DNA of 32,000 nt from Candidatus Brocadia sp. (GTDB lineage Bacteria > Planctomycetota > Brocadiia > Brocadiales > Brocadiaceae), in NCBI GenBank assembly GCA_021650915.1, contig CP091279.1:1290001-1322000 (forward strand). The letters run 5' to 3'. The notes under the pieces are model-generated. The model had not been told where the DNA came from. It worked only from the letters and a program-made list of their open reading frames with translations, and searched no databases. This document shows, one piece after another, positions 1,248-31,403 of the stretch (positions are counted from its first letter, which is position 1; each line of letters opens with the position of its first letter). The position numbers and the translations under genes were made by a program.

Positions 1248-2469
1248 ATGCCCGCGCTCTAAATACCGGGTTCACAAAATGCACATTATACGTAGCGTTC
1301 TTGGCAACATCTCCGGGATTTATCACAATATCCCCTAACACCTGACCATTCAGGGATACACGAACGGTCTCAGAATCACCGGCTAGTATGTTATTAGCAA
1401 GCGCTATACTCACTTGCACCTGATCAATATCCTCCCTGGTGGCGGCAAGGCTAAATTGCGCCCTGTACAGGTCTCCGGTATGCCACCAAAAACCATCAAA
1501 TTGGGCACCAAAGGCATTTCGGGATAATACCCCATCCACATCTGCAAACACACTATTTCCGAGATTGGCTGCCCTTGGTAATATACGAGTACTCAGTAAT
1601 CCCGTGCCTTTCTCTCGCAGACTTACCGTTACACCATTTTCTAAAATCCTGAAACTCCCGGAACCAGGCGGTACCGTATCAAGAAGCTCGAGCTGAATGA
1701 CACAGTCATTCGACCGGTTCCCATATATCGCTACAATACCTCTGATATCATCATGAGAAAGATATGCCCTTCTCGCCGAATAGAACGGATACATCAGGGC
1801 ATTGGGATCGGCAGAGTGTCCCAATCCAAGGGCATGACCCATTTCATGGGCAGCAACAGTCAACAGATCAATTCCTGCCCCTCCAAACGTGGGCGACACC
1901 CATGTTTCGGCATCGTCAAAATGGATGTCTCCGGCAATACAACCGGCATTTACGGGTGGTGGATAAAAGGCATGCGCCAATACACCGCCCGCACCATCGA
2001 ACGGATACCCGTCACCATGATTTCCTACTCCCCACGAGATGCGAATATCGCCACTGCAATTGCCATCATCCAAGACTTCCTGGGGATACACCCGCGTTAC
2101 ATTCGACCAAAGGCCAAATGCCTGGCCAATGATTCCGCGTTCTGCGGCACCTGAAACATCTCCCGTGCCGGTGCCAACAACGCTATAGGTGAAACCGGTC
2201 ACTGGCCAACTCCCACCACTGGTTACATACGATGCAATTCCGAAGGGGAGATCGTCATAGAGGCAAGGGGAATCCGGGGTACAAGCGAATGATTCCGCTG
2301 CAGCAGAAATGGGTTCTACCCGGAAAATAGTATCATTATTCGTTGAAACAATATATTGTTGCCCCTCATAAACAGCAGAAACACCTTCTTCCTCAAGCGC
2401 AAAAGAATTAGTTCCAATACTTCCCACAACCGCTATGCAGACTGCTGCAATTCCAAACATTCGTCTCAT
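1213..2469 (-). CDS. secreted matrixin-family (M10) zinc metalloprotease
   Basis: N-terminal signal peptide [17 protein letters not shown]. Zinc site and Met-turn [23 protein letters not shown] match HExxHxxGxxH...ALM-x-P. RBS AAGGAGGAGG lies upstream of the ATG. Confidence 0.85.
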
Positions 2470-2600
2470 ATTTCCTCCTCCTTTTTCTCACAGAATTAAT
2501 CAGAATATTTCCGGCACTTCTTCATAAACAGATACGATCTTGAAGAAAAATCCACGAACGTATCTTTTTCTTCTATTTCACAATCACCTCCTTTACCAAA

Positions 2601-2740
2601 TAAAAAAGCCTTACTGTCAAAATGCACATGATACATTTTCGGCAGTAAGGCTATCTTTCAGCATACTTTATGAGCATGCCACTACTTCAAAGATCCTTCA
2701 CTTTGCGCCCCCTGATCACTCAGGGTTTGCCTTTATCGAT
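2601..2740 (-). ncRNA. candidate sRNA, unit A of a tandem pair
   Basis: Promoter at 2746-2773 (minus strand). Long hairpin at 2607-2652 (AGCCTTACTG / CAGTAAGGCT) followed on the minus strand by TTTTTTATTT. No ORF longer than 8 codons. A paralogous unit lies 250-270 bp upstream (hairpin starts are 250 bp apart). Confidence 0.4.
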
Positions 2741-2745
2741 AACTC

Positions 2746-2773
2746 ATTATATCATAAAAACAAAATATTTCAA
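2746..2773 (-). promoter_or_regulatory. sigma70-like promoter for sRNA unit A
   Basis: The minus strand reads TTGAAA, a 16 nt spacer, then TATAAT. On the plus strand these are tttcaa at 2768-2773 and attata at 2746-2751. Confidence 0.5.
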
Positions 2774-2850
2774 TTAACAGCGCATATTTTTAAAAACAGG
2801 GTATCGGAAGATTTTCCATATGTCTTAGCATAAAAATGTAATTTATTCTC

Positions 2851-2975
2851 AAAAAAAGCCTTGCTGCCGAATACTTTTTACATTTTCGACAGCAAGGCTA
2901 TCTTGAAATTCGTTCTTATAAACTACACGATCCTTCGCCTGAGCCTCTTGATTACTCAGAGTCTGCTTTCGTGGA
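2851..2975 (-). ncRNA. candidate sRNA, unit B of a tandem pair
   Basis: Hairpin at 2857-2899 (AGCCTTGCTG / CAGCAAGGCT) followed on the minus strand by T7. Shares the blocks CTGAGTrATCA and GAAGGATC with unit A. Weaker promoter-like TTAGCA, 16 nt spacer, TAAAAG. Confidence 0.3.
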
Positions 2976-3015
2976 ATTCTTTTATCAGAAATACAAAAAA
3001 TGCTAAAACAACGAT

Positions 3016-3033
3016 CCGTATTTAAAAATACGG
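3016..3033 (-). terminator. hairpin just downstream of the lipoprotein gene stop
   Basis: The minus strand reads CCGTATTT-tt-AAATACGG followed by the T-rich atcgttgtttt, 13 nt after the stop codon at 3046. Confidence 0.35.
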
Positions 3034-3045
3034 AAACGCAATAGG

Positions 3046-3774
3046 CTATTTTTCAGAGGTGGAACGAACCTTCTCGTTGGCAATTTCTATGTTAAACTTT
3101 GCTTCCAGATTCTCAGGTTCAATGACGAGGACTTCTTCCCATTTACCAATTGCCGCCTTGTAATTCCCTTCCCGATACAACGTCAGGGCATCGTCCAACA
3201 ACTTTTGCAGCGCCTCTTTCTCCTGGTTGGTGATAATCGTCTTTAATTTCTGGTCGTTCTCCGGCTTTATTTCACTGCTTGCATCTTTCAGCATCTCACG
3301 CCCCTGCTCAAGCATCTCCTTTACCTCTTTGGTTTGTTCTATCTTCTTACCCGTCAAACGGGATCTTTGCGCCTGGAGCGCCATCAGCTGGTTTTGCAAA
3401 TCAGTTTTTGCCTTCTCAATTTCACCCATCTCCCTTTCAAGGTCTTTTACCGTCTTCTGTGTCTCGGCAACTACGTTCTCTAATGAACTGTCCATAAGCA
3501 CTATCTTGGAATCTAATTCATTCAGGCGACTGAGAAGTTTTGTATAATTAGAATCAGCATCGGCGGTCTTTGACGACAGCAACTCGACGCGTTTGCCAAG
3601 CGCTTGTGTCGTATCGTTTAAATCAGACAATCCCCGCTCAAGCTCCTTGATTTTTCGATCATTCACTCCTACCGGCACGGCTTGGATATCGGGTGATCTT
3701 TGAGAAGCTGCAACACATCCTGTAACCAGGGTAGCGAAACCCAATGCCATTACAATACTACCGCGTTGTTTCAT
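3046..3774 (-). CDS. lipoprotein with a long coiled-coil region and a C-terminal TPR-like motif
   Basis: Signal peptide plus lipobox-like LVTGC. A heptad-rich central region rich in E, K, L and Q. The C-terminal ALTLYREGNYKAAIGKWEEVLVIEPEN resembles a TPR. The architecture resembles CpoB/YbgF, but identity is not established. Confidence 0.6.
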   Translation of the reverse strand: MKQRGSIVMALGFATLVTGCVAASQRSPDIQAVPVGVNDRKIKELERGLSDLNDTTQALGKRVELLSSKTADADSNYTKLLSRLNELDSKIVLMDSSLENVVAETQKTVKDLEREMGEIEKAKTDLQNQLMALQAQRSRLTGKKIEQTKEVKEMLEQGREMLKDASSEIKPENDQKLKTIITNQEKEALQKLLDDALTLYREGNYKAAIGKWEEVLVIEPENLEAKFNIEIANEKVRSTSEK

Positions 3775-3816
3775 GATCCTCCTTTTTCGAAAGCCGGATG
3801 CATAGTCAAAAGGAAT

Positions 3817-4422
3817 CTATTTCATCTTTGACAAGTCAAAGTCAAACACCGTTTCTTCCCCCCCAGGAGCAACAACCGCCAGCGTAACAACTCCATTCAA
3901 ATCAATGTCTTTCGTTGGAAATTTAAATACCAGACGGGCTGAGTGGCTTGGGGAATCAGGCCAGAATTCGCTGGCTTCAGCAATATCAGGGGTAAACTCA
4001 AACTCTGGCTGTATCACATCATCCTTATAATAAAGCTTAGCGGTATAGTGAACGCAAAAGTCATATTCATCACCATAAACGGTAACGGAAAAGGTAAAAG
4101 CATCACCAATTTCCGCCGCCTGCATAATATTCTTTTGAGTAAACTCCCGCTGCTCTACGGCAAATTTTCGTGCCTTATAAGCAATATTATGAAAGGGGGT
4201 AAATAAGGTTGCAGTGCCCAGTCCTTTTTCTTTGCAGATAGTCCACGGTTTTGAAAACAATGATATCTCAATGCGTTTGTTTTTTTGCCCATATTCCACA
4301 GCCTCAGCTATTTGTTCCGTAGACAGCTCTAAAGAAATGGCGTAGGTTGGCTTTAATGCGAACAAACACATCTCCAGAGCAAAAACAGCCGTTATCGCAA
4401 ATACGTTCTTCATTACCATCAT
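3817..4422 (-). CDS. secreted hypothetical protein
   Basis: ORF of 201 aa with an N-terminal hydrophobic signal sequence (VFAITAVFALEMCLFAL). No family recognised. Confidence 0.55.
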   Translation of the reverse strand: MMVMKNVFAITAVFALEMCLFALKPTYAISLELSTEQIAEAVEYGQKNKRIEISLFSKPWTICKEKGLGTATLFTPFHNIAYKARKFAVEQREFTQKNIMQAAEIGDAFTFSVTVYGDEYDFCVHYTAKLYYKDDVIQPEFEFTPDIAEASEFWPDSPSHSARLVFKFPTKDIDLNGVVTLAVVAPGGEETVFDFDLSKMK

Positions 4423-10397: not shown

Positions 10398-10869
10398 ATG
10401 CTTCGTCTACCTGTTTTGAAATGAATTTGTGCTTCTATTTTATCCGTATTTTCAAGGCATTCAAGGAAAATTAATGAAAGATAGAAAATCCCGTCTGCTG
10501 GCTTGGTAGCAATACCGGTCAGATCAAAACGGCACCATACCAGTTACTCTTATTTGACTTTTACTTTCAATTTTGCTTTTGCACTGCCTGCTTTAAATTT
10601 CACCCTTCCTTTTCTCATTTTCCGGTCACTTGATTGGGTCAGTTCCGTAATGGTAAACTCGGTCTGGCCATGAGCGTCGGTAATGCTTCTTCTTGGATGA
10701 ACCGTGATGCATCTTCTGCCCCTTTTAACCTGCGCCCTTACTTTCTTACCCTCCACTGGGCAACCACCCTCACCGGTTACCGTCACCGTTACTTTAGCGC
10801 TCTTCCCTAGTTTAAGCCTTATTTTTTCCGGAGACACCGTCATCACCTTATCTCTGCACACGGCAATAT

Positions 10870-12150
10870 CCGTACCGGTAGTAAAGTTCCAGGTATAATC
10901 AGCAGCCATGGCGTTGCCGGCAAGGTCTTTTACCCCCCTGGTCATCGTTACCGTGTAGGCCGTGGAATGGGCTAGGTTACCCGACGGCGCGAACGTCGCT
11001 GTCGTGCCACTATAAGATACCGATCCGCTGACATTACTACTACCATCATACACGCTAAAGGTGGCGATGCTCACAGTAGACACATCCATCGCCTCAAAAA
11101 ACGTAACCGTAATAGCCCCGTTGATTGCCGCACCAGACGCTCCGTTGACCGGACTCGTGGAACTTACCGCGGGTGATGTGATATCCGTATCCGTGCCGGC
11201 AGTAAAGTCCCAGGTGTAATCAGCAGCCATAGCATTGCCGGCAAGGTCTCTTACTCCCGTGGTAATCGTTGCCGTATAGGTGGCAGAAGGTATCAGGTCG
11301 CTCAATGGTGTAAATGTGGCTACCGTACCATGATACATAACAGATCCGCCAATGGTACTACTGCCATCATTCACGGTAAATGTAGCGGTGCTTATCGTAG
11401 AGACATCTATCGTCTCACTGAACACAGCAGCAATAGCTCCATTAATAGCAACACCAGATGCGTCATCGACCGGACTCGTGTCACTTACGGCGGGCGGTGT
11501 GATATCCGTATCCGTACCGGTGGTAAAGCTCCAGGTGTAATCATCGGTCATGGCATTGCCGGCAAGGTCTTTTACCCCCGTGGTAATCGTTGCCGTGTAG
11601 ACGATAGAAGGAGTCAGGTTACTGGTCGGGCTAAACGTTACCGTCATACCACGGCAGGATACCGATCCGCTGATATTACCGCTACCGTCATTTACCGTAA
11701 AAGTCGCTGCGGTAACGGTAACGGCATCCATTGCCTCACTGAATGTAGCAGTAATCGCCCTGTTGACAGCCACTCCAGATGCGCCATGAACTGGGCTTGT
11801 GGCGCTTACCGTTGGCGGTGAGGTATCCGTGTCTGTGCCAGTGGTAAATTCCCAGGTGTAATCAACGGCCATGGCATTGCCGGCCAGGTCTTCCACCCCC
11901 GTGGTAATCGTTGCCGTGTAGACGGTGGAAGGAGTCAGGTTAGCCGATGGTGTAAACGTGGCCGTCGTACCACGATACGATACCGATCCGCCGATATTAC
12001 CGCTGCCATCATTTATGGTAAAGGTCTCCGTAGTAACGGTAGAGGTATCCATTGCTTCACTGAACGACGCACGTATGGCCGTGTTTATCGTCACCCCTGT
12101 AGCTTCATGGGAAGGACTGGTGGAATCAACCCCGGGGGTTACCGTCAATA
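10870..12150 (-). repeat. four tandem 321-bp (107-aa) coding repeats
   Basis: The motif CC(G/A)G(T/C)(A/G)GTAAA..CCAGGT.TAATCA recurs at 10875, 11196, 11517 and 11838, a period of exactly 321 bp. Confidence 0.85.
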
Positions 12151-12460
12151 CTCCGGAATTTGTTGGACTCAGACTGCCTGTGGTTACCTTGATTTCAGTA
12201 GTTCCTGAGAAATGCCCGGTAAAAACAGCGCTTTTCCTGTCCCCACCCGGAACCAAATCTCCTGCAACCACCCCACCCGTGGCGTTTTCAAGAGACCATA
12301 CATCGGCAGCCACATTAGCGACAAAGTTATCATAATCATCACGTTCAATCGCATACACCGTAATCGAACGACCCGAAGTGATACTTTGCAAAGGCACTAC
12401 CGTCCCACTTCCATCCGCCACCGTCTCAACCCTCACCTTCGTCCCGGTTCCCAGGGTAAT

Positions 12461-13390
12461 CGTAAACGCATCGCTCTCGGCTGAGGTTAGCCCTGCACTC
12501 GATGCCGTCAGATTCTTTGCTCCTTCCAGATTGATGCTCAAATCAGAAAAGGTCGCAAGGCCACTGCCATCCGTTGACTGCGGTGTCGTGCCACTGAGCA
12601 CGCCGGTGCCGGTCGTCAGGGCCATCGCCACAGACACACCGCCCCTGGACACGTTATTGCCAAGGATATCCTTAAGTTGCACGGTAATAGCCGGACTGAT
12701 TACATCATTAGCCACCGTGTCCGTAGGCTGCTGAACAAAGATAATGCTGACTGCTGCGCCGGCCGATATCGTAAACGCATCACTCACGGCCAAGGTCAGT
12801 CCTGCGCTTGATGCCGTCAGGTTTTTTGAGCCTGTCAGGTTGATGCTAAGATCGTTAAAGGTTGCAAGACCACTGCCGTCCGTTGTCTGCGGTGTCGTGC
12901 CACTGAACACGCCGGTGCCGGTTGTCAGGGCCATCGCCACTGACACACCGCCTGTGGATACGTTATTACCAAGGGCATCCTTGAGCTGCACAGTAATGGC
13001 CGGACTGATCGCAGCGCCTGCCACGGCATCAGCAGGCTGCTGGACAAAGGCAACGCTGGCTGCAACACCAGCCGATATTGTAAACGCATCACTCACAGCC
13101 GAGGTCAGTCCTGCGCTTGATGCCGTCAGATTTTTTGAGCCTGTCAGGTTGACGCTAAGATCGTTAAAGGTTGCAAGACCACCGCCATCCGTTGCCTGCG
13201 GCGTCGTGCCGCTGAGCACGCCGGTGCCGGTCGTCATGGCCATCGCCACTGACACACCACCCGCGGACACGTTATTGCCAAGGGCATCCTTGAGTTGCAC
13301 AGTAATGGCCGGACTGATCGCAGCGCCTGCCACGGCATCAGCAGGCTGCTGGACAAAGGCAACGCTGGCTACCGCACCTGGATTGATAAG
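12461..13390 (-). repeat. three tandem 309-bp (103-aa) coding repeats
   Basis: CGTAAACGCATC... recurs at 12461, 12770 and 13079, a period of 309 bp with high identity. Confidence 0.85.
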
Positions 13391-14169
13391 GAGTCCAGCA
13401 TTAGAACCGGTCTTGGAGTTCCCATCTGTGACGGTAATGCTGATAGTCTCTGCAATATTGTCTTTCGTGCTTATGGTGAACGTACCGGCAGTTAATGTCT
13501 TGGTATTGTCACCAAACGATGCATCGCCGTTACTATCAAATTGCACACTCCCTGAACTGCCCATGGTTACGACCGTGCTGTTATCATAAACTACCGTTTC
13601 GTTTAAAAGATCCTCTGCCGTCACCTTCGTCAGAAACGTAATGCCTGCAGTCTGTGGAGAGGTGGCATTTACTACATAGTGATCAATTTCCTGCTCACCA
13701 ATGGCAAAGTCTCCTAACGAAGAGATGCCTGTTGCTCCGGTACTTGTCGCTGTTTTCGTTCCTGCAGTCGTTGGGAGCCAGGCAGCCCCGTTGAATTGCC
13801 GTACGACAAAGCTTCCTGGCGCCGCCCCCCCATCCGTGACACTTGCAACGAAGTTGAACGTGGCATCGTACGTGGAGAATCCTAACCCTCCGCCGTCCGT
13901 CAACGTCCAGAACCGATTAACGCTTCTTGCAGAGTCGATTCCGGATGTCCCAACGCCAGGATGTTCCGTTGCCGTTGCCGCCGCGGTTACGTTACCTGGA
14001 GTGGTTACATTAAGAGAATTTATACTCACAGGGGTATAATCAGTTGCATCGCCTATGTCAAACGTGAAAGATTGAGCGCCGGCTGCAAATACCTTCTGCA
14101 AATTGCCGGCAATATGGCCACTTGTCCGCGACACACTCCCCGACGAGTCGATAACCATCGCAACCGAAT

Positions 14170-14755
14170 CCGTTGTAATGTTGCCGCCAGCAAGAGTCAG
14201 CGTACCTGTGACGGTGGCAGTCCCAGCAAGGGTAACACCGTTAGAATTACTGATCTTGATATTACCATAGGTAAGGGCACTTACGATTTGAGCCGATGTT
14301 CCGGCGTAGTCAACCGTTAAATCAGTCAAAGTATTTGTTGTGAACTTATACTGATTCGAGTAATCAGCCGTTGCAGACGTTCTCGTTACCTGAACGGTTC
14401 CCAAGCCGGTGATGGCACCTTGTGTGGCAGCATTATTGACCACCACTGTCGCCGCAGGACTTAAGAGGGCAGATGCATTGACGGTCAAAGTGCCGCTGAC
14501 ATCGAAGTCTGCGCTCGCCGTAACGGCGGCAGCCGTATTGGATATTTTCAAACTTCCGTAGCTCAAGGCGCTTATCTCCTGGGCTGCTGTTCCGGCATAG
14601 TCGACCGTCAGATTGTTCAAAGTATTTGTTGTGAATTTATACTGGCTTGAGTAATCAGCCGTTGCGGACATTCTTGTTACCTGAACGGTTCCCAAGCCAG
14701 TGATGGTACCTTGTGCGGCAGCATTATTGACCACCACCGCTGCTGCAGGACTTAA
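14170..14755 (-). repeat. 291-bp (97-aa) coding repeats; a third unit continues at 18775-19065 beyond IS-A
   Basis: The repeat junction GGACTTAAGAG is at 14457-14467. The homologous junction at 14748-14755 is the one interrupted by IS-A. Confidence 0.7.
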
Positions 14756-14905
14756 CCCGACTTTCGCAATTCGCGCCCAAAAAAGTTTATTTTTGGGCAA
14801 GAGTCGCCAGGAAACCCGTGATATTCAAGGGGTGAATTTTCAAAACGGCTTGTAGTGCCGACCTACCCTCTTGACGCATGCAGGAGGAAGTGCGAAAATG
14901 CTCGC

Positions 14906-15476
14906 ATGTTTCTCCGGGAAAAGACATGAACGAAAGATGGAAAAACCCACCGTTATTGGAGTGTGGTAGAGAACCACCGGGTCAGCGGAAGAAGGGTGGT
15001 GCAGCGGCAGGTTCTCTATTTGGGAGAACTCAATGACAATCAACGGGCTGGGTGGATTCGGACGATAGAGGCGGTGTCGGGTAAAGAACCGAAACCAAGA
15101 CAACTGGCATTGTTTCCGGATGACCGGGAAGCCATGCCGATACCGGATGGTGAGACCGTTCAGGTGAGATTGGACAAAATAGAGCTGCGCCATCCACGGG
15201 AGTGGGGAGCAAGCTGGTTGGGATTGCATGTATGGGATATGCTGGAACTGGACGCATTTTGGAGAAAGCGTCTGCCGTCAAGCCGGAAGGGAACAAGCTG
15301 GCTGAATATCCTGAAGGCGCTTGTCTGTTACCGGTTGACCGATCCGGGAAGCGAATTTCGTTTTCACCGTGAGTGGTACGTGCGGAGCGCAATAGGTGAT
15401 CTGCTGGGAGAGGATTATTCCCTGGCGCAGAAGGACAAGGCGTATCGTTGTTTGGATTTGTTGCTTGAGCATCGGC
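14906..15476 (+). pseudogene. IS1634-family transposase, exon 1, with an in-frame TGA at codon 8
   Basis: ATG at 14906 gives MFLREKT*TKDGKTHRYWSVVENHRVSGRRVVQRQVLYLGEL. As I recall the family, this is its typical N-terminus, with Arg at position 8, which would imply CGA->TGA at 14927-14929. The frame is interrupted by the intron after 15476. Confidence 0.7.
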
Positions 15477-17478
15477 GTGCCTTGAAGTATGGGATACCTA
15501 AGTGGTTGAAAATATCACCTCTGCGAGCCTAGATCCTCGTAGAGAAGTTTGTACCTATGCGTATACAAAGGAGCAATCCGTGTGCGTAGAAGGATAGCGT
15601 ATTCCCGTGAGGGGTATGACGGAGTTACGAGGTACAGACGACCTTTTGGGGTGTATGAGTATGGCGTGTTAGTTCGTGCCAACTGCCCTTTCTCAGTGAA
15701 GCACTGACAATGTCCTTGTTGGAGATGTCAAAAAAAAAAAGACCTGGTGAAAACATCTCTGGATAATGCGTTTGAACATACATCACGAAGGGAAAAGGGG
15801 TAATTCATATGACCGGGGGAGGACTTACGTCTTGGGAAGAAATTCCCTAACAGCGAGGTATAAGGGAAATCCGAAATCCAAGCTGTATGAGATGGTGACG
15901 GACGACTGGCTCTCACAGGTCTGTCTTTGAAGTCGTCAGCAGTGCTCATAATAGTTTCTGGTGTGTACCAGGAATGAAGGGGCATAACCGTAGTGGAGTT
16001 GATGAAACGTGGTAGATTGAATACGTTCCATGAGAAAAGAGACTCTTTGCATGGGCAAGTAGTAGCAAGAGCCTCTCTTGTTTTGCCTCTGTCAGGAGGA
16101 ATCTCGACTCAGGAAACACGATTGACAAGTCTATTATCCGGAATCAATCAAAAGGAACATATCGGGAGATGCTTAAGTATCATTCTTTAAGAGACAAGGT
16201 ATTCAGTCTGAGAAACCTTTATGCGGCTTTTGGGCACGTAAAGAAGAATAAAGGCAAGGCTGGTCTCGACAGGGTAAGTATTAAGCAGTTTGAAAGTGAC
16301 CTTGAGAATAATCTACAAGCTATTCACAAGGAACTGAAAACCGCCATATACAACCCTGCGCCCGTCTTAAGGGTCTACATTCCCAAAGGCAGGCATGGCA
16401 AGAGACCTCTTGGCATTCCCATTGTCAAGGACAGGGTAGTACAGCAGGCGTTCAGACAAATCATAGAGCCAATATTCGAGAAAGAATTCTCGGATAACAG
16501 CTTTGGATTTCGTCCAAACAGATGCTGTCATGATGCTATCAAACGGATTGAACAGTATAAGCAGCAAGGGTATCGGAACATTTTGGACGCCGATATAAAG
16601 GCGTTCTATGATACCATACCTCACAAGCTTATCATGAACTCCTTGCGTGAGAAAATTGCTGACGGATGGGTGTTGAACAGTATCGAGAACATGCTCAAGG
16701 CAGGGGTCATGGAGGACGGCATCGTGCATGAGACAAATCAAGGCACTCCGCAAGGAGGCGTCATATCTCCCTTGCTTGCAAACCTTATCGGTGACATCAT
16801 CGACAAGGAGCTTGAAAAGGCAGAATATAAATTTGTCCGCTATGCCGATGACTTCGTTGTCATGACTAAAACGAAAGAAGAACTCCCTGCCGCCCTTCAG
16901 TACGTCAAGGAAATCATCGAAGGGAAACTTGAAATGAAGCTGAACGAGGATAAAACCAGGCTCACCAACTTCAAACGAGGCTTCCGGTTTCTCGGATATA
17001 ATTTCATGGGCAAGAACAAGGGTGTAAGCATGAAATCCCTGGACAAACTCAAGGACGCCGTCAGGGACATCACCAAACGCACACAAGGCGTCAACCTGCA
17101 AGCCGTCATTGATACATTAAATCCTGTCATAAGGGGACATGTCAACTATTTTCGGCTGGGCAATGTACAAACGGTATATCGCTCGTTAGACTGCTGGGTA
17201 CGCATGAGACTGAGAAGTTTCAAGTTTTCGAGAAAATGGAAAACTGACAACAAACGTTTCCCGGTACACCGATTCTTTAAGATGGGGTTACTCTCATTTG
17301 AAAGAGAATTTCTTAAGGCACGTGCAAAGGCATGATAGGTTACTTTTCTCTGCTCCAGAGCAACACTATGGGGTCGCTAACTACGGGAAAGCCGTATGGT
17401 TTAAAAGGATACTTTGTCACGTTGTCCAAAGTATCTGGCGACGATTGGGGGTTGGAGGCGATTCGCCTCCTTCCTACC
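15477..17478 (+). mobile_element. group II intron, copy 1 (2002 nt), with an intact intron-encoded protein
   Basis: Boundaries come from comparison with copy 2 and from frame restoration of the host gene. They carry a 1 nt ambiguity because a C flanks both ends. The 5' end reads GTGCC. The 3' region has a 10-bp stem at 17407-17436 and a hairpin at 17454-17470. The ORF lies in the expected domain IV position. Confidence 0.8.
16169..17335 (+). CDS. group II intron reverse transcriptase/maturase, no endonuclease domain
   Basis: 388 aa with RT motifs RPLGIPIVKDRVVQ, GTPQGGVISPLLAN and YADDFVV, plus a maturase X-domain RGHVNYFRLG. No HNH or Cys motifs follow domain X. Confidence 0.9.
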   Translation: MLKYHSLRDKVFSLRNLYAAFGHVKKNKGKAGLDRVSIKQFESDLENNLQAIHKELKTAIYNPAPVLRVYIPKGRHGKRPLGIPIVKDRVVQQAFRQIIEPIFEKEFSDNSFGFRPNRCCHDAIKRIEQYKQQGYRNILDADIKAFYDTIPHKLIMNSLREKIADGWVLNSIENMLKAGVMEDGIVHETNQGTPQGGVISPLLANLIGDIIDKELEKAEYKFVRYADDFVVMTKTKEELPAALQYVKEIIEGKLEMKLNEDKTRLTNFKRGFRFLGYNFMGKNKGVSMKSLDKLKDAVRDITKRTQGVNLQAVIDTLNPVIRGHVNYFRLGNVQTVYRSLDCWVRMRLRSFKFSRKWKTDNKRFPVHRFFKMGLLSFEREFLKARAKA

Positions 17479-18695
17479 AGCTGGACGAGTTGTTTGCCTA
17501 TTTAAAGGAGAAGTGGGGAAAACTCTTTGGGGCGAAGTACGATGTGCTGCTGTATGATTTGACGAGTACGTATTTTGAAAGTGACCCACCTCCGACTGGA
17601 TCGGGGAGTAAGAAACGGTTTGGATATAGCCGGGACAAACGTTCGGATTGCGTGCAGGTGGTAGTGGCATTGGTGTTAACGCCGGAAGGATTTCCCGTGG
17701 CCTACGAAGTGTATCCGGGCAATACCAGAGACACCGCAACGCTGGAGGAATTTCTGGATCGGATTGAAAAGCAGTATGGGAAATTCCGGCGCACCTGGCT
17801 TATGGATCGCGGTATTCCAACGGAGGAGATGTTGGAAAAGATGCGTGAGCGCGGGATTGATTATTTGGTTGGGACTCCGAAGGGACATTTGACGCGAGTA
17901 GAAAAACCGTTGCTCGAACAAACCTGGATGCAGGCGAGGGAGAGTGTCCGCGTGAAAGTTCTTCGGCAGGAATCGGAGTTTTACGTTTACGTGGAAAGCC
18001 ATGACCGGGTGTCTAAGGAGCGTGCCATGCGTAGGCGCAGACTCAGACGTTTGTGGATGGGCCTGCGCGAACTTCGCAATCGAAAAGCCCTCACGCGCGA
18101 TGACCTGCTCATGCATATTGGCGCGTTAAAGAAAGAAGCCGGACGAGACTACAGACTGGTCACGATCTCCATTCCCAAACCGCAGGAACCGGTCAATGAG
18201 AATACGTTCCGGTTCAGTTTGGATCGGGAACGCCTGAGGCAGGCGTATCGGCGCGAGGGGCGTTATTTGCTTCGTTCCAACATGCAGGCCGCCGCGCCAG
18301 AAACCGTCTGGGAAAATTATTTGCTGTTGACGCGGATAGAACAGGCATTTAAGGACTTGAAGGGGTCTCTTTCCGTCCGCCCCCTATGGCATCAATTGGA
18401 ACGGAGAATTGAAGCCCATATCTTTGTTTCCTTTTTGGCTTTTTGTCTCCACACGACACTGCGCAATCTTGCGCGGGGGAGGGCCGGAGGGCTGACGTCT
18501 GAAGCGATTTTGGAAAAACTGTCGGGCATTCAAATGATAGACGTTCATTTACCGACCACGGATGGCCGTCATATTGTCATGAGCCGTTATACCCAGCCGG
18601 AGAAGGACGTTTTACTCCTTTTGGCGCAGTTGGGATTAACGCTTCCTGAACAACCGCCGCCCAAGGTTTACGTATCCGGGCAGGTCGGCCTGTAG
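17479..18695 (+). pseudogene. IS1634-family transposase, exon 2
   Basis: The splice join CAT CGG C|AG CTG GAC gives LLEHRQLDELFAYLKEKWGKLFGAKYDVLLYDLTSTYFE..., continuing through the DDE region (WLMDRG, YLVGTPK) to a TAG at 18693-18695. Confidence 0.75.
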
Positions 18696-18709
18696 TGCCG
18701 ACCTTTTTA
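18682..18709 (+). terminator. rho-independent terminator at the transposase stop
   Basis: AGGTCGGC-ctgtagt-GCCGACCT followed by TTTTT. The stop codon TAG lies in the loop. Confidence 0.6.
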
Positions 18710-18770
18710 CATGACCCCTTGATTTTCCTGGCTTAGCGGGTTGTATACCCCTCGAATTGCGAAAGTCGGG

Positions 18771-19675
18771 TTAAGAGAGCAGATGCATTCACGGCCAGAG
18801 TGCCACCGACATCGAAGTCCGCGCTTGCCGTAACGGCGGCAGTCGTATTGGATATTTTCAGATTTCCGTAGCCCAAGGCGCTTATCTCCTGGGCTGCTGT
18901 TCCGGCATAGTCAACCGTCAGATTCGTGAGCGTCTTGTTGTCAATAGTATATTGCAAGCTGAAATCATCCACCGCTGCCGTACGCGTTACTTGCACGGAG
19001 CCGTTCCCGCTCAAAGTGCCGGTTCCGCTGACTACTACGGCCGCGGCAGGAGTTAAGACGGCATTTACATCTACCGTGAGAGTTCCAACAGCGCTAAAGT
19101 TTGTATTTGCCGAAACTGCTGCACTTGCATTCGAAATGGTTACATTATTGAATGCGGTAGCTCCTGTTCCGCCAATGGCCTGTGCTGATGAGCCATGAAA
19201 AATTATGGCGCCGGAACCAGCAGTAAAGGTGTCATCGTTGTCCCAGTTGCCCGTCAGACCCAGCGTACTCGAGTCGCCATTGAGCGTGCCTGCCGTAATC
19301 GTGACGTCACCATTAATGGTGTGCAACAAAGCAGCGCCAAGATCCAATGTCCCGCCACTTCCATTCATCGTTAGCGATGCAGCCGTTATATCTCCGGTAA
19401 GCGTGGCGGTGCTTGCTGTCCGGTTAATGAGAAACGCCCCTGTTGTTACGAAACCGTCAATGCTTGGCGCCGGACTTGTTCCCCCGATCGTTATGCTGGA
19501 ACTGTTCGCGGTAAAAATGCCTCCATTCGTGAAGCTTCCGTTGAGAGTCAAAGCAAAGTTGTCTCCCGATGTGTCGAGCGTTCCAGCCGTTATCGTGAAA
19601 TCGCCGTTTACTATGGTGTCTGCGCTCAATGTTGCTGTCTGCCCTGATTTATTAATGGTGAGATGATGATAGGTA
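18771..19675 (-). pseudogene. giant repetitive surface protein, middle fragment (between IS-A and IS-B)
   Basis: The frame reads YHHLTINKSGQTATLSADTIVNGDFTITAGTL...AVNASALL. Both ends join in frame to the flanking fragments once the IS elements and target duplications are removed. Confidence 0.8.
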
Positions 19676-21524
19676 GTGTTTGAACGGAAACCCCCCAGAG
19701 CCCTGTAAAGTAAGGAGAAGCTGGTGAAAAATGTTCATGAAAGTCATTGAATTTTTTCGGGTAAAAGGGTAAAATATGGCGAAAATGAAGGGATTCTGGG
19801 TATAAAGAGTCCAAATATTCGGTTCATTAACCCACTAGCCAAAGGACATTCGATAGAAGATGAGAAAGAGATTTGAGCAGCAATTGAAGCTTGGCATCAT
19901 ACCCATTTCAGGGGTAAAACTGCCAATAAAGAGTCGAGATGAGCTACCACCGATACTGAGGGCGTTGCAACATATCTATGTTACACCGGAGTTGAACGAG
20001 GAGGTATTCCGGATATTAGAGGCGAAGGTAACGAAGGGGAAGAAAAAGACGGGAAGATATGGGATGGATTTATGGCATATTTTGGTGTTGTCGGTGGTAA
20101 GATTAGGGTTAGATGCCGATTATGACAGGTTGGAGGATTTTGCCAACCATCACAAACTTATCAGGCAGATAATGGGGGTTGAGACGGCATTTGGAGAGGC
20201 GAAGGTTTTTTCGATGCAGAGCATCAAGGACAATATAAGATTGTTGGATGAGGAGACCCTCAGGCAGATAAATGAAGTGGTGATATCATCGGGGCATCAG
20301 TTGGTTAAAAAAAAGGACGAAGGACTGTGTATTAAGGTGGATACGTATGTGTTAGAGACGAATGTACACTTTCCGACCGATATGAATTTATTGTGGGATG
20401 CGGGACGCAAGAGTCTGGACATGATAGAGGATGCAATAGAGGAAGGCATCCTGGCGGGGAAAGGATGGCGCAAGAGCAAATATTGGAGGAGAGAGTTAAA
20501 AAAGCTGATGAGGATAAGCGCAAAGGCGTCAAGCAGCGGGGGGAAAAACAAGGAAGAGCATGTGAGGAGTTACTTGGAATTATCGAGGGGTTTGAGTGAA
20601 AAGATAGGAGCGAGTCTGTTAGCCATCTACGAAAAGGTGCTAACGACGAACCAGGTAGACAAGCATGCAGGGAAAATAGGGACACTGGAGTATTTTCACG
20701 GGATGTTGAATAAACAGATAGACCTGGTGGAGAGAAGGGTGATCCGGGATGAGGTAATACCGGCGGCAGAAAAGGTTCATTCGTTGTTTGAGCCGCATAC
20801 GGAGTGGCTGTACAAAGGCAAGTCAAACAAAAGGGTAGAGTTGGGACATAATATTCTGGTAGCAAGCGATCAGTGGGGTTTCATCGTGGACCATGTGGTA
20901 GGAGAAAAACAGGCGGATGTATCGTTGGTAATTCCATTGGCAGATAGGTTGTTGAGCCGTTACGGAGAAGGCACAATAAAGAGTATAAGTTTTGATAAAG
21001 GTTTTTACAAGAAAGAGAATAAAGAGTTGCTGAGTTTGTATATACCAGAGGTAATCCTTCCCAAGAAGGGCAAGAAGAATAAGGCGGAACAGGAAGAGGA
21101 ATCGGGTAAGACATTTAAGAAGCTAAGGCACAAGCACTCGGCGGTAGAATCGGATATCAATCGTTTGGAGCATCACGGCTTGGATAGGTGTCCGGACAAA
21201 GGGCTGCATGCCTTTAAAAGATATTGTGCAATGGGCGTGTTAGCTGCGAATTTGCACAAGCTGGGAAACGTGCTGCAGGAGAAGGCACGGAAGCAGTGCG
21301 AAAAGTTGCGAAAAGCCGCCTAAGCAAGCAAAAAACACGAAGAAAAACAGTCTGCCGGGAGGCAGGTACGCCCAGACAAGGCTAAAATAAAGGGGAAAAC
21401 AAGGGAAATATGTAAAAGAACAGTATTTTTGCCAAAAACCCTAATCTCAAATCTTAAAATTATCTATTGGTAAATAGAAAATCGACCTCGCACTTTTACA
21501 AAAAGTGCGTTTTCGTTCAGACAC
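19676..21524 (+). mobile_element. second insertion sequence (IS-B), 1849 bp
   Basis: Imperfect terminal inverted repeats: GTGTTTGAACGGAAAC at 19676 and the reverse complement of 21509-21524, GTGTCTGAACGAAAAC. A direct repeat TAGGTA (extendable to TAGGTAGT) flanks the element at 19670-19675 and 21525-21530. Excision restores GGA ACT ACC TAT CAT CAT (GTTYHH). Confidence 0.8.
19860..21323 (+). CDS. DDE transposase of IS-B (IS5/IS1182/ISNCY-like; family assignment tentative)
   Basis: Intact ORF of 487 aa. The N-terminal segment RDELPPILRALQHIY and the segment VDTYVLETNVHFPTDMNLLWD are typical of IS4/IS5-superfamily DDE enzymes. Confidence 0.75.
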   Translation: MRKRFEQQLKLGIIPISGVKLPIKSRDELPPILRALQHIYVTPELNEEVFRILEAKVTKGKKKTGRYGMDLWHILVLSVVRLGLDADYDRLEDFANHHKLIRQIMGVETAFGEAKVFSMQSIKDNIRLLDEETLRQINEVVISSGHQLVKKKDEGLCIKVDTYVLETNVHFPTDMNLLWDAGRKSLDMIEDAIEEGILAGKGWRKSKYWRRELKKLMRISAKASSSGGKNKEEHVRSYLELSRGLSEKIGASLLAIYEKVLTTNQVDKHAGKIGTLEYFHGMLNKQIDLVERRVIRDEVIPAAEKVHSLFEPHTEWLYKGKSNKRVELGHNILVASDQWGFIVDHVVGEKQADVSLVIPLADRLLSRYGEGTIKSISFDKGFYKKENKELLSLYIPEVILPKKGKKNKAEQEEESGKTFKKLRHKHSAVESDINRLEHHGLDRCPDKGLHAFKRYCAMGVLAANLHKLGNVLQEKARKQCEKLRKAA

Positions 21525-23285
21525 TAGGTAGTTCCCACAACCGTTTGCACAGCGGTCGCGCTGGTATAGTTGATCGTGTTTGAGTCAACACTGGCGTCAA
21601 GTGAAACGATGGTTGAAGTACCGCCAATATTTAAGGTGGCTCCGCTACCCTGGGTAAGTCCACCCGTGCCGCCTAAGGCAGTGTTTACCGTTAGTGTCGT
21701 GTTGTTGGTAAGGGTAACACCCGTAACGGTTACACTGGGGATGGAAATTGCCGTTGTTCCGCCAAGAGCCTGGTTGTTTGTATCAAAGGTATACACCCCA
21801 GTTCCGGCAGTAAAGGTCGTGCCATTATGGGTAATTCCGCCCTGAAAAGTCACCGCTGAATTTGCAGAATTATTCCACGTCCCGCCTGCATTGACGGTTA
21901 CCAGACCGACAAACGATTTCGTCCAGGTTGCATTCGTAATGCCAAGGGTACCGGTGATGTTCGTGGTGCCGTTTACGATACAGGCATTACTGCCCGTGTT
22001 GAGCGTCCCGGTAGTAATGGTAAGATCACCATTTATTATGATGTTTCCGCCCAGTGTCGCGGTCCGTGCGGATTTATTAATCGCGAGATGATGATAGGTA
22101 GTTCCCACAACGGTCTGGTTAGCAGCCGTGCTGGTATAGTTAACCGTGTTGGGATTTACACTGGCGGTTAGCGTAGTAATAGCTGAAGTGCCACCAATAT
22201 TTAAGGTGGCGCCACTGCCCTGGGTAAGCCCGCCCGAGCCGCTTAAGGCGGTGTTTACCGTTAGTGTCGTGTTGTTGGTAAGGGTAACACCCGTAACGGT
22301 TACGCTGGGGATGGAAATTGCCGTCGTACCTCCAATCGCCCGACTGTTCGTATCAAAAGTATGCACCCCCGTTCCGGCAGTAAAGGTCGTACCGTTATGG
22401 GTAATTCCACCCCGGAAGGATACGGCTTCGTTGGCCGTGTTATTCCACACTCCACCGGGATTAATGGTAACCAGTCCAGTAAATATTTTTGTCCCCGTAG
22501 TTGAAGAGATTGTTACCACGCCTGTTATGCTTGTTGCTCCGGAGACCGTCGTTGTAACTGCCCCAAAAGTGAGTGTGCCGGTGGTTACCGTCAACGTTCC
22601 GCCAATGGTTGTCGTGCCAAGAAAAGAGACGCCTCCCGATGTATTATTAATGGCAATATTATAATACGTGGTATAGGCCCCTATGGATTGCGCTACACTG
22701 CCATTAAAATTGATCGTACCGGTTGCTGAAGTGTTTAAATTTCCGCCGCTTCCAAAATTGCCACCGACATTTACCGTGCTTGCGCCGGTTGAGATAAATC
22801 TTGCCTGAGCTGCAGTGCCACTGAACGTTATAGAACCTGTAATGGTAATTGTCCCGGTGCTGACGCTGACCGTGGCAAAACGGCTGGCAGTAGCGCTGCC
22901 GGGAATGGTGATGCTCGCTGCGTTGAGAACGCCGGCGCCGACGGTCAGATTCGTTGTTGCTGCTGTTGGAGCAGTTAGGGTGATAGCGCCGCTGATGTTC
23001 AAGGTGATTCCGGAGTTAATCGTAACGCCATTCCCACCGACAGCGCTGTTGGCGGCAACTGTTAAGGTTGCCGCAGCAGCATCGGCCGTTACCGTAACGA
23101 TGTGACCATCAGCAACGGTGACGTCGTCGCCGGCAACGGGGGCAACCCCACCAACCCAGGTCGTCGTGGCATTCCAGTTACCCGTGAGTGCGGACGTTAT
23201 ATTTGCCGCAAGTACCGCCGGCTCCCGAACAAGAAAGACCGCAAAGGCAAAGAGGCATACAATCGCAATCTTTTTGATATGACAT
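21525..23285 (-). pseudogene. giant repetitive surface protein, N-terminal fragment with a signal peptide
   Basis: The frame is open from 23284 down to a TAG created at the IS-B junction. It encodes [16 protein letters not shown]...VLAAN (signal peptide) and then T/G/N-rich beta-helix-like repeats. The only ATG (23285) is out of frame by +1 relative to the long frame. Confidence 0.7.
21527..22666 (-). repeat. two tandem 570-bp (190-aa) coding repeats
   Basis: GGTAGTTCCCACAAC starts both units, at 21527 and 22097, and long stretches are near-identical. IS-B inserted at the homologous repeat boundary. Confidence 0.85.
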
Positions 23286-28836: not shown

Positions 28837-29113
28837 ATGAGACCGGACTTTGAGTGGGATAAAGAGACGGCGAAAGCAAATCTCAAAAAGCACAGAGTCT
28901 GTTTTGAGGAGGCTACCACAGTTTTCCTCGATCCATTTTCAATGACGATTCCTGACCCTGATCACTCAGTGGAAGAACAACGGTTTATTGACATTGGTAG
29001 TTCTGATAAAGGCCGTGTGCTGGTAGTGGTTTATACTGAACGCGGTTCAAGCATGCGTATTATCAGCTGCCGTAAGGCAACGCCATCGGAGCGGACACTT
29101 TATGAAGAAGGGC
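28837..29113 (+). CDS. brnT: BrnT-like (DUF497) toxin, exon 1; exon 2 is 31110-31123
   Basis: FEWDKETAKANLKKHRVCFEEATTVFLDPFSMTIPDPDHSVEEQRFIDIGSSDKGRVLVVVYTERGSSMRIISCRKATPSERTLYEE matches the DUF497 pattern. The frame then runs into the intron. Confidence 0.8.
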
Positions 29114-31109
29114 GTGCCTTGAAGTATGGGATACCTAAGTGGTTGAAAATATCACCTCTGCGAGCCTAAATCCTCGTAGAGAAGTTTGTACCTATGCGTA
29201 TACAAAGGAACAATCCGTATGCGTAGAAGGATAGCGTATTCCCGTGAGGGGTATGACGGAGTTACGAGGTACAGACGACCTTTTGGGGTGTATGAGTATG
29301 GCGTGTTAGTTCGTGCCAACTGCCCTTTCTCAGTGAAGCACTGACAATGTCCTTGTTGGAGATGTCAAAAGAGACCTGGTGAAAACATCTCTGGATAATG
29401 CGTTTGAACATACATCACGAAGGGAAAAGGGGTAATTCATATGACCGGGGGAGGACTTACGTCTTGGGAAGAAATTCCCTAACAGCGAGGTATAAGGGAA
29501 ATCTGAAATCCAAGCTGTATGAGATGGTGACGGACGACTGGCTCTCACAGGTCTGTCTTTGAAGTCGTCAGCATTGCTCATAATAGTTTCTGGTGTGTAC
29601 CAGGAATGAAGGGGCATAACCGTAGTGGAGTTGATGAAACGTGGTAGATTGAATACGTTCCATGAGAAAAGAGACTCTTTGCATGGGCAAGTAGTAGCAA
29701 GAGCCTCTCTTGTTTTGCCTCTGTCAGGAGGAATCTCGACTCAGGAAACACGATTGACAAGTCTATTATCCGGAATCAATCAAAAGGAACATATCGGGAG
29801 ATGCTTAAGCATCATTCTTTAAGAGACAAGGTATTCAGTCTGAGAAACCTTTATGCGGCTTTTGGGCACGTAAAGAAGAATAAAGGCAAGGCTGGTCTCG
29901 ACAGGGTAAGTATTAAGCAGTTTGAAAGTGACCTTGAGAATAATCTACAAGCTGTTCACAAGGAACTGAAAACCGCCATATACAACCCTGCGCCCGTCCT
30001 AAGGGTCTACATTCCCAAAGGCAGGCATGACAAGAGACCTCTTGGCATTCCCATTGTCAAGGACAGGTAGTACAGCAAGCGGTCAGACAAATCATAGAGC
30101 CAATATTCGAGAAAGAATTCTCGGATAACAGCTTTGGATTTCGTCCAAACAGATGCTGTCATGATGCTATCAAACGGATTGAACAGTATAAGCAGCAAGG
30201 GTATCGGAACATTTTGGACGCCGATATAAAGGCGTTCTATGACACCATACCTCACAAGCTTATCATGAACTCCTTGCGTGAGAAAATCGCTGACGGATGG
30301 GTGTTGAACAGTATCGAGAACATGCTCAAGGCAGGGGTCATGGAGAACGGCATCGTGCACGAGACAAATCAAGGCACTCCGCAAGGAGGCGTCATATCTC
30401 CCTTGCTTGCAAACCTTATCGGTGACATCATCGACAAGGAGCTTGAAAAGGCAGGATATAAATTTGTCCGCTATGCCGATGACTTCGTTGTCATGACTAA
30501 AACAAAAGAAGAACTCCCTACCGCCCTTCAGTACGTCAAAGAAATCATCGAAGGGAAACTTGAAATGAAGCTGAGCGAGGATAAAACCAGGCTCACCAAC
30601 TTCAAACGAGGCTTCCGGTTTCTCGGATATAATTTCATGGGCAAGAACAAGGGTGTAAGCATGAAATCCCTGGACAAACTCAAGGACGCCGTCAGAGACA
30701 TCACCAAACGCACACAAGGCGTCAACCTGCAAGCCGTCATTGATACATTAAATCCTGTCATAAGGGGACATGTCAACTATTTTCGGCTGGGCAATGTACA
30801 AACGGTATATCGCTCGTTAGACTGCTGGGTACGCATGAGACTGAGAAGTTTCAAGTTTTCGAGAAAATGGAAAACTGACAACAAACGTTTCCCGGTACAC
30901 CGATTCTTTAAGATGGGGTTACTCTCATTTGAAAGAGAATTTCTTAAGGCACGTGCGAAGGCACGATAGTTTACTTTTCTCTGCTCCAGAGCAACACTAT
31001 GGGGTCGCTAACTACGGGAAAGCCGTATGGTTTAAAAGGATGCTTTGGTACGTTGTTCAAAGTATCTGGCGACGATTGGGGGTTGGAGGCGATTCGCCTC
31101 CTTCCTACC
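29114..31109 (+). mobile_element. group II intron, copy 2 (1996 nt), with a defective intron-encoded protein
   Basis: Collinear with 15477-17478 and differing by scattered SNPs. It has aaaagag where copy 1 has an A11 tract (15730-15740) and carries a 1-nt deletion in the RT ORF. Flanked by GGC | AGCT, as in copy 1. Confidence 0.85.
29801..30969 (+). pseudogene. group II intron RT/maturase, frameshifted
   Basis: GGG (copy 1, GACAGGGTAG) is GG here (GACAGGTAG, about 30066), producing a TAG at 30068-30070. The rest of the protein continues in another frame (ORF 30214-30969). Confidence 0.85.
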
Positions 31110-31124
31110 AGCTAGGTGAGTAAA

Positions 31125-31403
31125 ATGGCACGGACGACGGATAGCGATATGCGCGCCGAGTATGATTTTAGAGGTGGAGTGCGTGGCAAGCATTACAGAG
31201 CCATGCAAGCTGGATATACAATTACTATTCATGAAGCGGATGGCACAACTGTCGTTAAGGATGTGATACCAAAAGAGGGCGCAGTCATCCTGGAACCAGA
31301 TGTTAGAGCATATTTTCCAGATTCAGAATCAGTAAATAGGACTTTGCGTTGTTTAATTCCGCTGCTGCCCAAAAAGCTTAAAACAAAAGCTAAAAAGGCC
31401 TAA
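31125..31403 (+). CDS. putative antitoxin partner of BrnT
   Basis: MRAEYDFRGGVRGKHY...VILEPDVRAYFPDSESVNRTLRCLI resembles antitoxin-type small proteins found beside DUF497 toxins. The ATG lies 1 nt after the restored brnT stop (TAA at 31121-31123). Confidence 0.55.
   Translation: MARTTDSDMRAEYDFRGGVRGKHYRAMQAGYTITIHEADGTTVVKDVIPKEGAVILEPDVRAYFPDSESVNRTLRCLIPLLPKKLKTKAKKA

Follow-up and report, generated by a model that had tools for sequence, protein, structure and literature searches.

Within a 32,000 nt stretch of DNA from Candidatus Brocadia sp., an anammox planctomycete, hereafter the window, to which all coordinates refer, a group II intron lies inside the transposase gene of an IS1634-family insertion sequence (IS), which in turn interrupts the gene for a giant surface protein of Big_5/Ig-like repeats. 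The host gene is on the minus strand, its downstream part running from 10550 to 14755 in the list of open reading frames (ORFs), with a Pfam Big_5 score of 315 bits, and its upstream part from 18771 to 19629; four Big_5 Ig-like domains are recognised by Pfam in the downstream part, between 10550 and 14800. The IS, on the plus strand, occupies 14756-18770, exactly the outer limits first proposed for it, and is 4015 bp long with the intron and 2007 bp without. It is bounded by perfect 18 bp terminal inverted repeats (14756-14773 and 18753-18770; CCCGACTTTCGCAATTCG) and flanked by a duplicated TTAA target, the left copy at 14752-14755 and the right copy at 18771-18774, with which the upstream part of the host gene starts; an inverted-repeat scan returned 23 nt rather than 18 bp because TTAA is palindromic. 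In silico removal of 14756-18774 joins the two minus-strand ORFs into a single ORF of 1721 aa, which bears out the proposal that the IS resides within a host gene. The repaired junction (...GTLAVNASALLSPAAAVVVNNAAAQG...) agrees with a paralogous repeat module at 14420-14500, the paralogous host module without the IS reads GCAGGACTTAAGAGGGCAG, and the same host sequence is split at the IS site, separating ...GGACTTAA from CCCGACTTTCGC... and ...GCGAAAGTCGGG from TTAAGAGAGCAG. The TTAA target has been used twice, by the IS in the window and by a related IS copy in L084 (L-numbers denote comparison loci).

The transposase gene and its interruption

The transposase gene is divided into a first exon at 14906-15474 (plus strand), comprising codons 1-189 and the CG of the Arg190 codon, and a second at 17483-18695 (plus strand), extending from the G of Arg190 to the stop codon. 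The intron between them, at 15475-17482 on the same strand, is 2008 nt long, begins with GCGUG, ends with ...CUACCAGCU and splits the Arg190 codon in phase 2, between CG and G. The uninterrupted IS copy in L084, which is 80% identical, is colinear with 14752-15474 and 17484-18085 with one base between, so the insert is 2008 nt; the resulting one-base ambiguity in the boundary is resolved by related intron copies at unrelated sites. The predicted ligated-exon sequence is GAGCAUCG^GGACGAG, and the joined transposase, of 593 aa, is colinear with the homologues P0001-P0004, scores 294.7 bits against NF033559 (IS1634; cutoff 100) and matches Pfam DDE_Tnp_1 in its downstream half. It is 97-98% identical to four proteins annotated as 'IS1634 family transposase' on a 4.05-Mb contig of a Candidatus Brocadia sp. 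metagenome-assembled genome (MAG). Exact-protein contig look-ups for P0001, P0121 and the reverse transcriptase (RT) of the window intron returned no record. The element shares with the IS1634 family its DDE transposase, terminal inverted repeats and short target duplication, and differs in carrying an intron and a nonsense codon.

The original prediction, of a same-orientation insert of around 2 kb carrying an intact RT/maturase within an IS1634-type transposase gene, is upheld by matches to RVT_1, GIIM, TIGR04416 and NF033559. The limits it gave for the intron, 15477-17478 (2002 nt), were wrong by 2 and 4 nt, the 3' end having been misplaced because the branch-site 'CUAC' was taken for the intron terminus. 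The exon junction proposed on that basis is in frame but leaves six extra bases, encoding QL (LLLEHRQLDELF), whereas intact homologues pass directly from HR to DELF: all eight, four of them at 97-98% identity, read LLLEHR-DELF in the alignment, and LLLEHR-DELFAYLK in the 97-98% set.

Transposase production was also predicted to depend on splicing. This is sound insofar as the ORF is restorable only by removal of the intron from the same strand, but an in-frame TGA at codon 8 (14927-14929) still blocks the full-length product, and splicing by itself would therefore be unable to yield an intact transposase. Arginine occupies this position in 8/8 aligned homologues (MFLREKTRTKDGK), among which the surrounding N-terminus is invariant (MFLREKTRTKDGKTHRYWS), and CGG stands at this codon in L084, whose IS copy is more distant. 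Hence the window copy lacks an intact autonomous transposase ORF on two counts, the TGA and the intron.

Further repeats lie within the ends of the IS. A 19-nt subterminal direct repeat (14846-14864 and 18686-18704; CGGCYTGTAGTGCCGACCT), 95% identical between its copies, overlaps the transposase stop codon on the right, and an imperfect subterminal inverted repeat is found at 14813-14833 and 18714-18734; these may be candidate transposase-binding sites. The surface-protein gene is additionally split around 1 kb upstream of the IS1634 copy by an unrelated ISNCY-family element at approximately 19680-21510, with its transposase at 19860-21323 on the plus strand (NF033593, 443.8 bits). Inspection of the ends of this element did not reveal clean terminal inverted repeats, and host-like ORFs resume beyond it at 21524-23002 on the minus strand.

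Termini, target sites and mobility of the intron

The window intron was compared with around 20 related copies at unrelated sites, drawn from B. pituitae, a Brocadiaceae MAG, a Kuenenia MAG, a Chlamydiae-labelled MAG, several metagenomes and a second copy in the window itself. All start with G(C/U)GUGCC and finish with CCUACCAGCU, while the bases outside vary: the preceding base is G or U, and the following base can be G, A, U or C. Insertion is precise, occurring without target duplication and with the same termini at each of these independent sites. Group II introns have the consensus termini GUGYG at the 5' end and AY at the 3' end. This family departs from both, having GCGUG at the 5' end in most copies (GUGUG in L001 and L087) and CU at the 3' end in all; altered termini are known in some group II introns (PMC4424553).

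Exon-binding site 1 (EBS1; CUUUCUCA), at 15688-15695 on the plus strand, is an 8-nt domain I loop carried on a GUGC/GCAC hairpin. In seven of the nine copies that were scored, it forms in-register pairs with the final 5-6 nt of the 5' exon. Pairing between EBS1 and the intron-binding site 1 (IBS1) is 6/6 in five copies and 5/6 in two, with covariation at exon position -1, where a G-C pair in most copies is replaced by U-A in L082 and L087. The joint lowest score, 3/6, belongs to L001 and to the IS copy, whose 5' exon reads GCAUCG. It is IBS1-EBS1 pairing that selects the 5' splice site in group II introns. Splicing from the IS would consequently be expected to be inefficient, and the IS represents an ectopic, probably poorly spliced, site. 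The absence of target duplication, the exact termini and the EBS-IBS pairing together suggest that copies spread by retrohoming or retrotransposition.

The RT/maturase is encoded at 16169-17335 (plus strand) in domain IV, comprises 388 aa without an endonuclease domain, and matches RVT_1 (7e-41) and GIIM (1e-16) in Pfam and TIGR04416 at 401.6 bits (cutoff 300). It is 98% identical to UJS20854.1, which is annotated as 'group II intron reverse transcriptase/maturase' and lies on the 4.05-Mb Brocadia sp. MAG contig mentioned above. The cluster of RT sequences defined at 90% has 58 members, and 13 of the 15 members listed come from this single contig; these 13 carry 16 accessions, three of them identical in sequence, and at least 15 RT loci are thereby counted in the one MAG. 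The second copy in the window (29112-31113, plus strand; 2002 nt) was found by self-BLAST to be 98% identical to the first, with a poly-A tract 5 nt shorter and an RT frameshifted by a 1-nt deletion. Its insertion site, after ...GAAGAAGG, leaves the last three codons of a brnT toxin gene (28837-29111, resuming at 31114) downstream of the intron. IBS1-EBS1 pairing there is 6/6, and the spliced brnT ORF matches BrnT_toxin at 96 bits. Downstream of brnT, an ORF at 31116-31403 that has no Pfam or NCBIfam match is a possible antitoxin. The intron lineage is therefore multicopy, and appears to have been recently mobile; its range spans the Brocadiaceae and metagenomes, including Chlamydiae- and Omnitrophica-labelled MAGs, with RTs down to ~61-69% identity.

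Nesting recurs elsewhere in the family, in more than one arrangement. A twintron is present in Ca. Brocadia pituitae AP021856.1 (L006, locus 1306-4313), in which one family copy has entered the RT ORF of another at a site (...UUCGAGAAAG) that is a perfect 8/8 match to EBS1. The L006 insertion follows ...TTCGAGAAAG, and the equivalent sequence in the window RT ORF is at ~16472-16481. The reverse nesting is found in L084, from metagenome Ga0082335_1025202 (loci 1-1350 and 1347-2812), where the 80% identical IS1634-family copy, with the same 18-bp end, has inserted into a copy of this intron at a TTAA equivalent to window position ~16017, its own transposase being uninterrupted across the Arg190 site. 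The occurrence of both the intron within the IS and the IS within the intron implies that these elements strike each other opportunistically. A junction-peptide search for fusions between the IS and the intron produced three candidates, none involving IS1634, although this is poor negative evidence, as the index is weak for short queries. Two database ORFs, P0256 and P0257, neither of them an IS1634 fusion, end in a shared intron-derived tail (RALKYGIPKWLKISPLRA), indicating further family insertion sites in unrelated genes.

The region of domains V and VI

Within group II introns, domain V shows the strongest conservation of all and corresponds to the catalytic stem of spliceosomal U6; in canonical form it is a contiguous hairpin of ~34 nt, recognised by RF00029, with an AGC or CGC triad, a 2-nt bulge and a loop of the GNRA type. 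No group II model of Rfam reached its gathering score in the window or matched at E<=1 over 2.4 kb, and the final 166 nt of the intron gave no match to RF00029 at E<=10. The sole Rfam match to reach its gathering score in the window was a c-di-GMP-I-GGC riboswitch aptamer at 2637-2740 on the minus strand (RF03167; 62.2 bits, gathering score 59). Scanning the intron for a canonical hairpin with the shape of domain V likewise found none. Relatives at 40-50% RT identity, by contrast, have canonical domains V and VI, recognised by RF00029 at 44-60 bits, with the same spacing from the ORF: all 75 distinct canonical relatives carry (G/A)AGCCG...CGGUU(C/U) with a 5-nt loop, in which the AGC triad is invariant and the pentaloops are GAGAU/GAAAA. 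When 45 of them were used to build a covariance model and the whole window was scanned with it, filters off, no complete domain V/VI was found anywhere; the only local matches on the plus strand were 17379-17401 (9.8 bits, E ~2) and the equivalent 31010-31032 in the second copy. The matched segment spans model positions 7-29, which correspond to distal domain V, comprising four lower base pairs, the four-pair upper helix, the pentaloop and the two-base bulge.

Around this match, the positions 17373-17442 (plus strand) can be read as a homologue of domain V that an insertion divides, making a three-way junction; its catalytic role is putative. The 5' strand (17373-17386) has CGC at the triad position (17375-17377) and is colinear with canonical relatives over 17374-17386; it is followed by a 5-nt loop, GAAAG (17387-17391), and a 3' strand consisting of 17392-17401, which includes the AU bulge (A17396-U17397), and 17437-17442. 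Between these two parts of the 3' strand, separating pairs 6 and 7, are 35 additional nucleotides (17402-17436), made up of UAAAA and a covarying hairpin (17407-17436) with the loop GUUGUC. The spacing from triad to bulge is five pairs, the same as in canonical domain V, and the middle pair of the triad is G-C in place of G.U; CGC is a known alternative to the AGC triad (PMC4424553).

The stem of the inserted hairpin varies in sequence yet remains paired (GGAUACUUUG, AGGUGCAGUGG, GGAUAUAAUU, GGAUGCGU or AGGUAUAG), while its GUUGUC loop is kept. In an alignment of 12 sequences, 96.1% of cells were paired under the domain V/VI model, against 34-45% in slid controls, and two-sided, compensatory changes were found at seven pairs, as compared with 1.7 +/- 1.0 in shuffles. 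Unconstrained folding of single sequences recovered the three-way junction in 10 of the 12. The junction motif is present at 18 loci, as well as at L164 and L166, and the architecture holds down to ~61-69% RT identity. The helix at the base that bears the triad is invariant, and consequently has no covariation support of its own; such invariance fits the expectation for a catalytic core, yet is no evidence for pairing.

In domain VI (17445-17480, plus strand), the RNAalifold consensus and pair counts place four base pairs below a bulged branch-site adenosine, A17476, which lies 7 nt from the 3' splice site, followed by 2 nt to the 3' end of the intron, and compensatory changes are found at three pairs. 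This geometry agrees with that of the canonical relatives (UACCCCUAU in comparison with UACCAGCU).

Several other arrangements of this region were considered. The sequence AGCCGUAUGG (17390-17399) was rejected as the 5' strand of domain V, as most family members have AGACGUAUGG and there is no conserved partner, and the hairpin at 17407-17436 was rejected as domain V itself, as its stem sequence varies freely and it has neither triad nor bulge. A pseudoknot between an upstream GAGCAAC, which contains an 'AGC', and the GUUGUC loop is mostly excluded by the use of the GAG in a small hairpin upstream of domain V that covaries in L160 (CUCU/AGAG changing to UUCC/GGAA); the invariant CAAC at 17361-17364 may still pair with the GUUG of the loop at 17421-17426. 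An interaction of the same loop with GACAA in domain I (15703-15707, beside the EBS1 hairpin) is a weak candidate, given a single covariation, in L085, and a local partner for GACAA. Elsewhere in the intron, UAUGG...CCUAAG (15488-15502) is similar to both halves of an 11-nt GAAA receptor; a flanking helix was not found, and no such assignment is claimed.

Interpretation and comparison with known systems

Once the intron boundaries are corrected, the observation of nested elements at this locus is real, and the nesting itself is ordinary. The favoured interpretation, to which a probability of roughly 0.78 is attached, is that an actively mobile, endonuclease-less intron retrotransposed once, ectopically, into the Arg190 codon of an IS1634 copy residing in a Big_5 gene, as a selfish element in an IS that is most likely dead. 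The intron lineage would have derived from relatives of the IIE/IIF type, the event at this locus would have been a one-off retrotransposition into a poorly matching site of a decaying IS copy, and the intron would be better viewed as a selfish retroelement than as a tuned regulator. The stop at codon 8 and the weak EBS1 pairing together make it most likely that the IS copy is dead, with the intron acting as a near-permanent disruption. Among the ~20 insertions of other family copies with readable flanks, none is in this IS, and intact 593-aa transposases of the IS are abundant in related genomes, which argues that the IS is not a homing site.

Several points count against this interpretation. 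Weak EBS1 pairing is no proof of poor splicing, as the scoring covered EBS1 and EBS2 and EBS3 may also contribute; an N-terminally truncated transposase might in principle start at the GTG at 14963; and further intron-bearing copies of the IS are possible, as the comparison covered part of the source genome. Regarding the intron RNA, no group II model of Rfam reached its gathering score for this intron at any of the 19 family loci scanned (an RF00029 match in L059, 2.5 kb away from the RT, is probably part of a different intron). The sole Rfam trace in the window intron is a sub-threshold match to D1D4-1 at 15914-15982 (20 bits), and its ribozyme activity is putative.

Alternatively, the intron may have entered the IS earlier, with the two then moving as a composite into the surface-protein gene and the nonsense mutation arising later. 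The 4015-bp unit as a whole is still bounded by intact inverted repeats and a TTAA duplication, and the intact transposases of related genomes could act in trans; set against this, no second composite copy was seen and the order of events is unreadable from a single copy, leaving this history rather improbable. Less probable still is that the intron serves as a functional post-transcriptional gate, as originally predicted, with splicing tuning the mobility of the IS and the intron spreading by riding on it. Such a role would suit the shared orientation of intron and transposase, the precise in-frame restoration at the corrected junction and the intact RT ORF; with the ends and target duplication of the IS preserved, mobilisation of the composite in trans is also conceivable, and there is a precedent in RmInt1 and ISRm2011-2 (PMC3035460). 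Yet the TGA at codon 8 and the 3/6 IBS1-EBS1 pairing leave a gate unsupported at this locus, and that precedent splices at 0.07%, which amounts to a block rather than a gate (PMC3035460). Spread together with the IS likewise finds no backing, as no second intron-bearing IS occurs among the ~20 family insertions and intron-less copies, many with intact 593-aa transposases, are the rule.

Equally doubtful is the reading that domain V has been lost and the gene irreversibly disrupted, the insert being either a degenerate intron or a retroelement that does not splice but has a group II-like RT. In its favour, there is no Rfam domain V/VI match at any threshold, no full match to the covariance model of canonical relatives and no AGC triad, invariant in the 75 distinct relatives. 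Against it, the termini are exact at ~20 unrelated sites, which lack target duplications; EBS1 and the 5' exon covary; domain VI shows compensatory changes and, at -7, a bulged A; and a segment colinear with domain V, with its CGC, AU bulge and 5-nt loop, is invariant down to ~61-69% RT identity. The main argument against degeneracy is that ongoing mobility, to which three RT copies of identical sequence at separate loci point, needs a working ribozyme. Failure of covariance models to recognise group II domains, the outcome that the original prediction had named as counting against it, was thus literally observed with the Rfam models, and is outweighed by the termini, EBS1, domain VI and the relatives.

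The part of these results that seems most worth following is the putative interruption of domain V and its invisibility to standard models. On comparative grounds, the chances are about even that the intron represents a previously undescribed, actively mobile lineage in which a catalytic domain V with a CGC triad is split by a 35-nt hairpin insertion into a three-way junction and so escapes RF00029; its members occur in Brocadiaceae, in metagenomes and in MAGs labelled Chlamydiae and Omnitrophica. Were this the case, mobility despite a hairpin in domain V and a changed triad would demonstrate an unexpected structural tolerance at the catalytic centre, and the lineage would lend itself naturally to tests of how that centre is put together. 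As there is no match to RF00029, censuses anchored on domain V (e.g. bioRxiv 10.1101/2021.09.28.462093) would miss the lineage entirely, and the intron loads of anammox and related genomes have probably been undercounted.

Diagnostic traits of classes IIE and IIF include, in domain I, an alpha' at a stem-loop terminus and an extra DId3 bulge, as well as the phylogenetic position of the intron-encoded protein. The lineage resembles these classes in its endonuclease-less RT/maturase of ~390 aa and in the pentaloop of domain V; a 5-nt domain V (zeta') loop is an idiosyncrasy of these classes (PMC3753933). It differs from its putatively IIE/IIF-like relatives in having CGC rather than AGC, GCGUG rather than GUGYG at the 5' end, CU rather than AY at the 3' end and the 35-nt insertion in domain V. 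Target sites differ as well: the Brocadia lineage favours purine-rich YGRGRRRG, whereas the canonical relatives insert just past a GC-rich hairpin. Canonical relatives at 40% RT identity are themselves multicopy in Desulfosarcina alkanivorans (L061-L068) and a Planctomycetota MAG (L014-L021), where all copies are located ~5-7 nt downstream of a conserved hairpin of this type (GCGGC-UGGAA-GCCGC).

In bacteria, group II introns typically reside in or near other mobile DNA, and documented variants include deviant termini, as in the 3' extension of B.c.I4, and both bacterial and archaeal twintrons (PMC4424553). These share with the Brocadia lineage their unusual termini or nesting, but retain a contiguous canonical domain V, which, according to a review, is a small and strongly conserved domain whose triad is AGC or CGC (PMC4424553). 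The closest parallel to the locus as a whole is RmInt1 of Sinorhizobium meliloti, which interrupts the transposase gene of ISRm2011-2 and splices at the 0.07% given above; its authors proposed that such introns restrain the spread of IS elements (PMC3035460). The idea of a gate has thus already been published, and the nesting in Brocadia is another case of a known pattern. Both systems involve an endonuclease-less group II intron inserted in the sense orientation in an IS transposase gene. However, the IS of RmInt1 is a natural, high-efficiency homing site with full EBS-IBS pairing, whereas the site in the window pairs at 3/6, is unique among ~20 copies and lies in a gene that also carries a nonsense codon.

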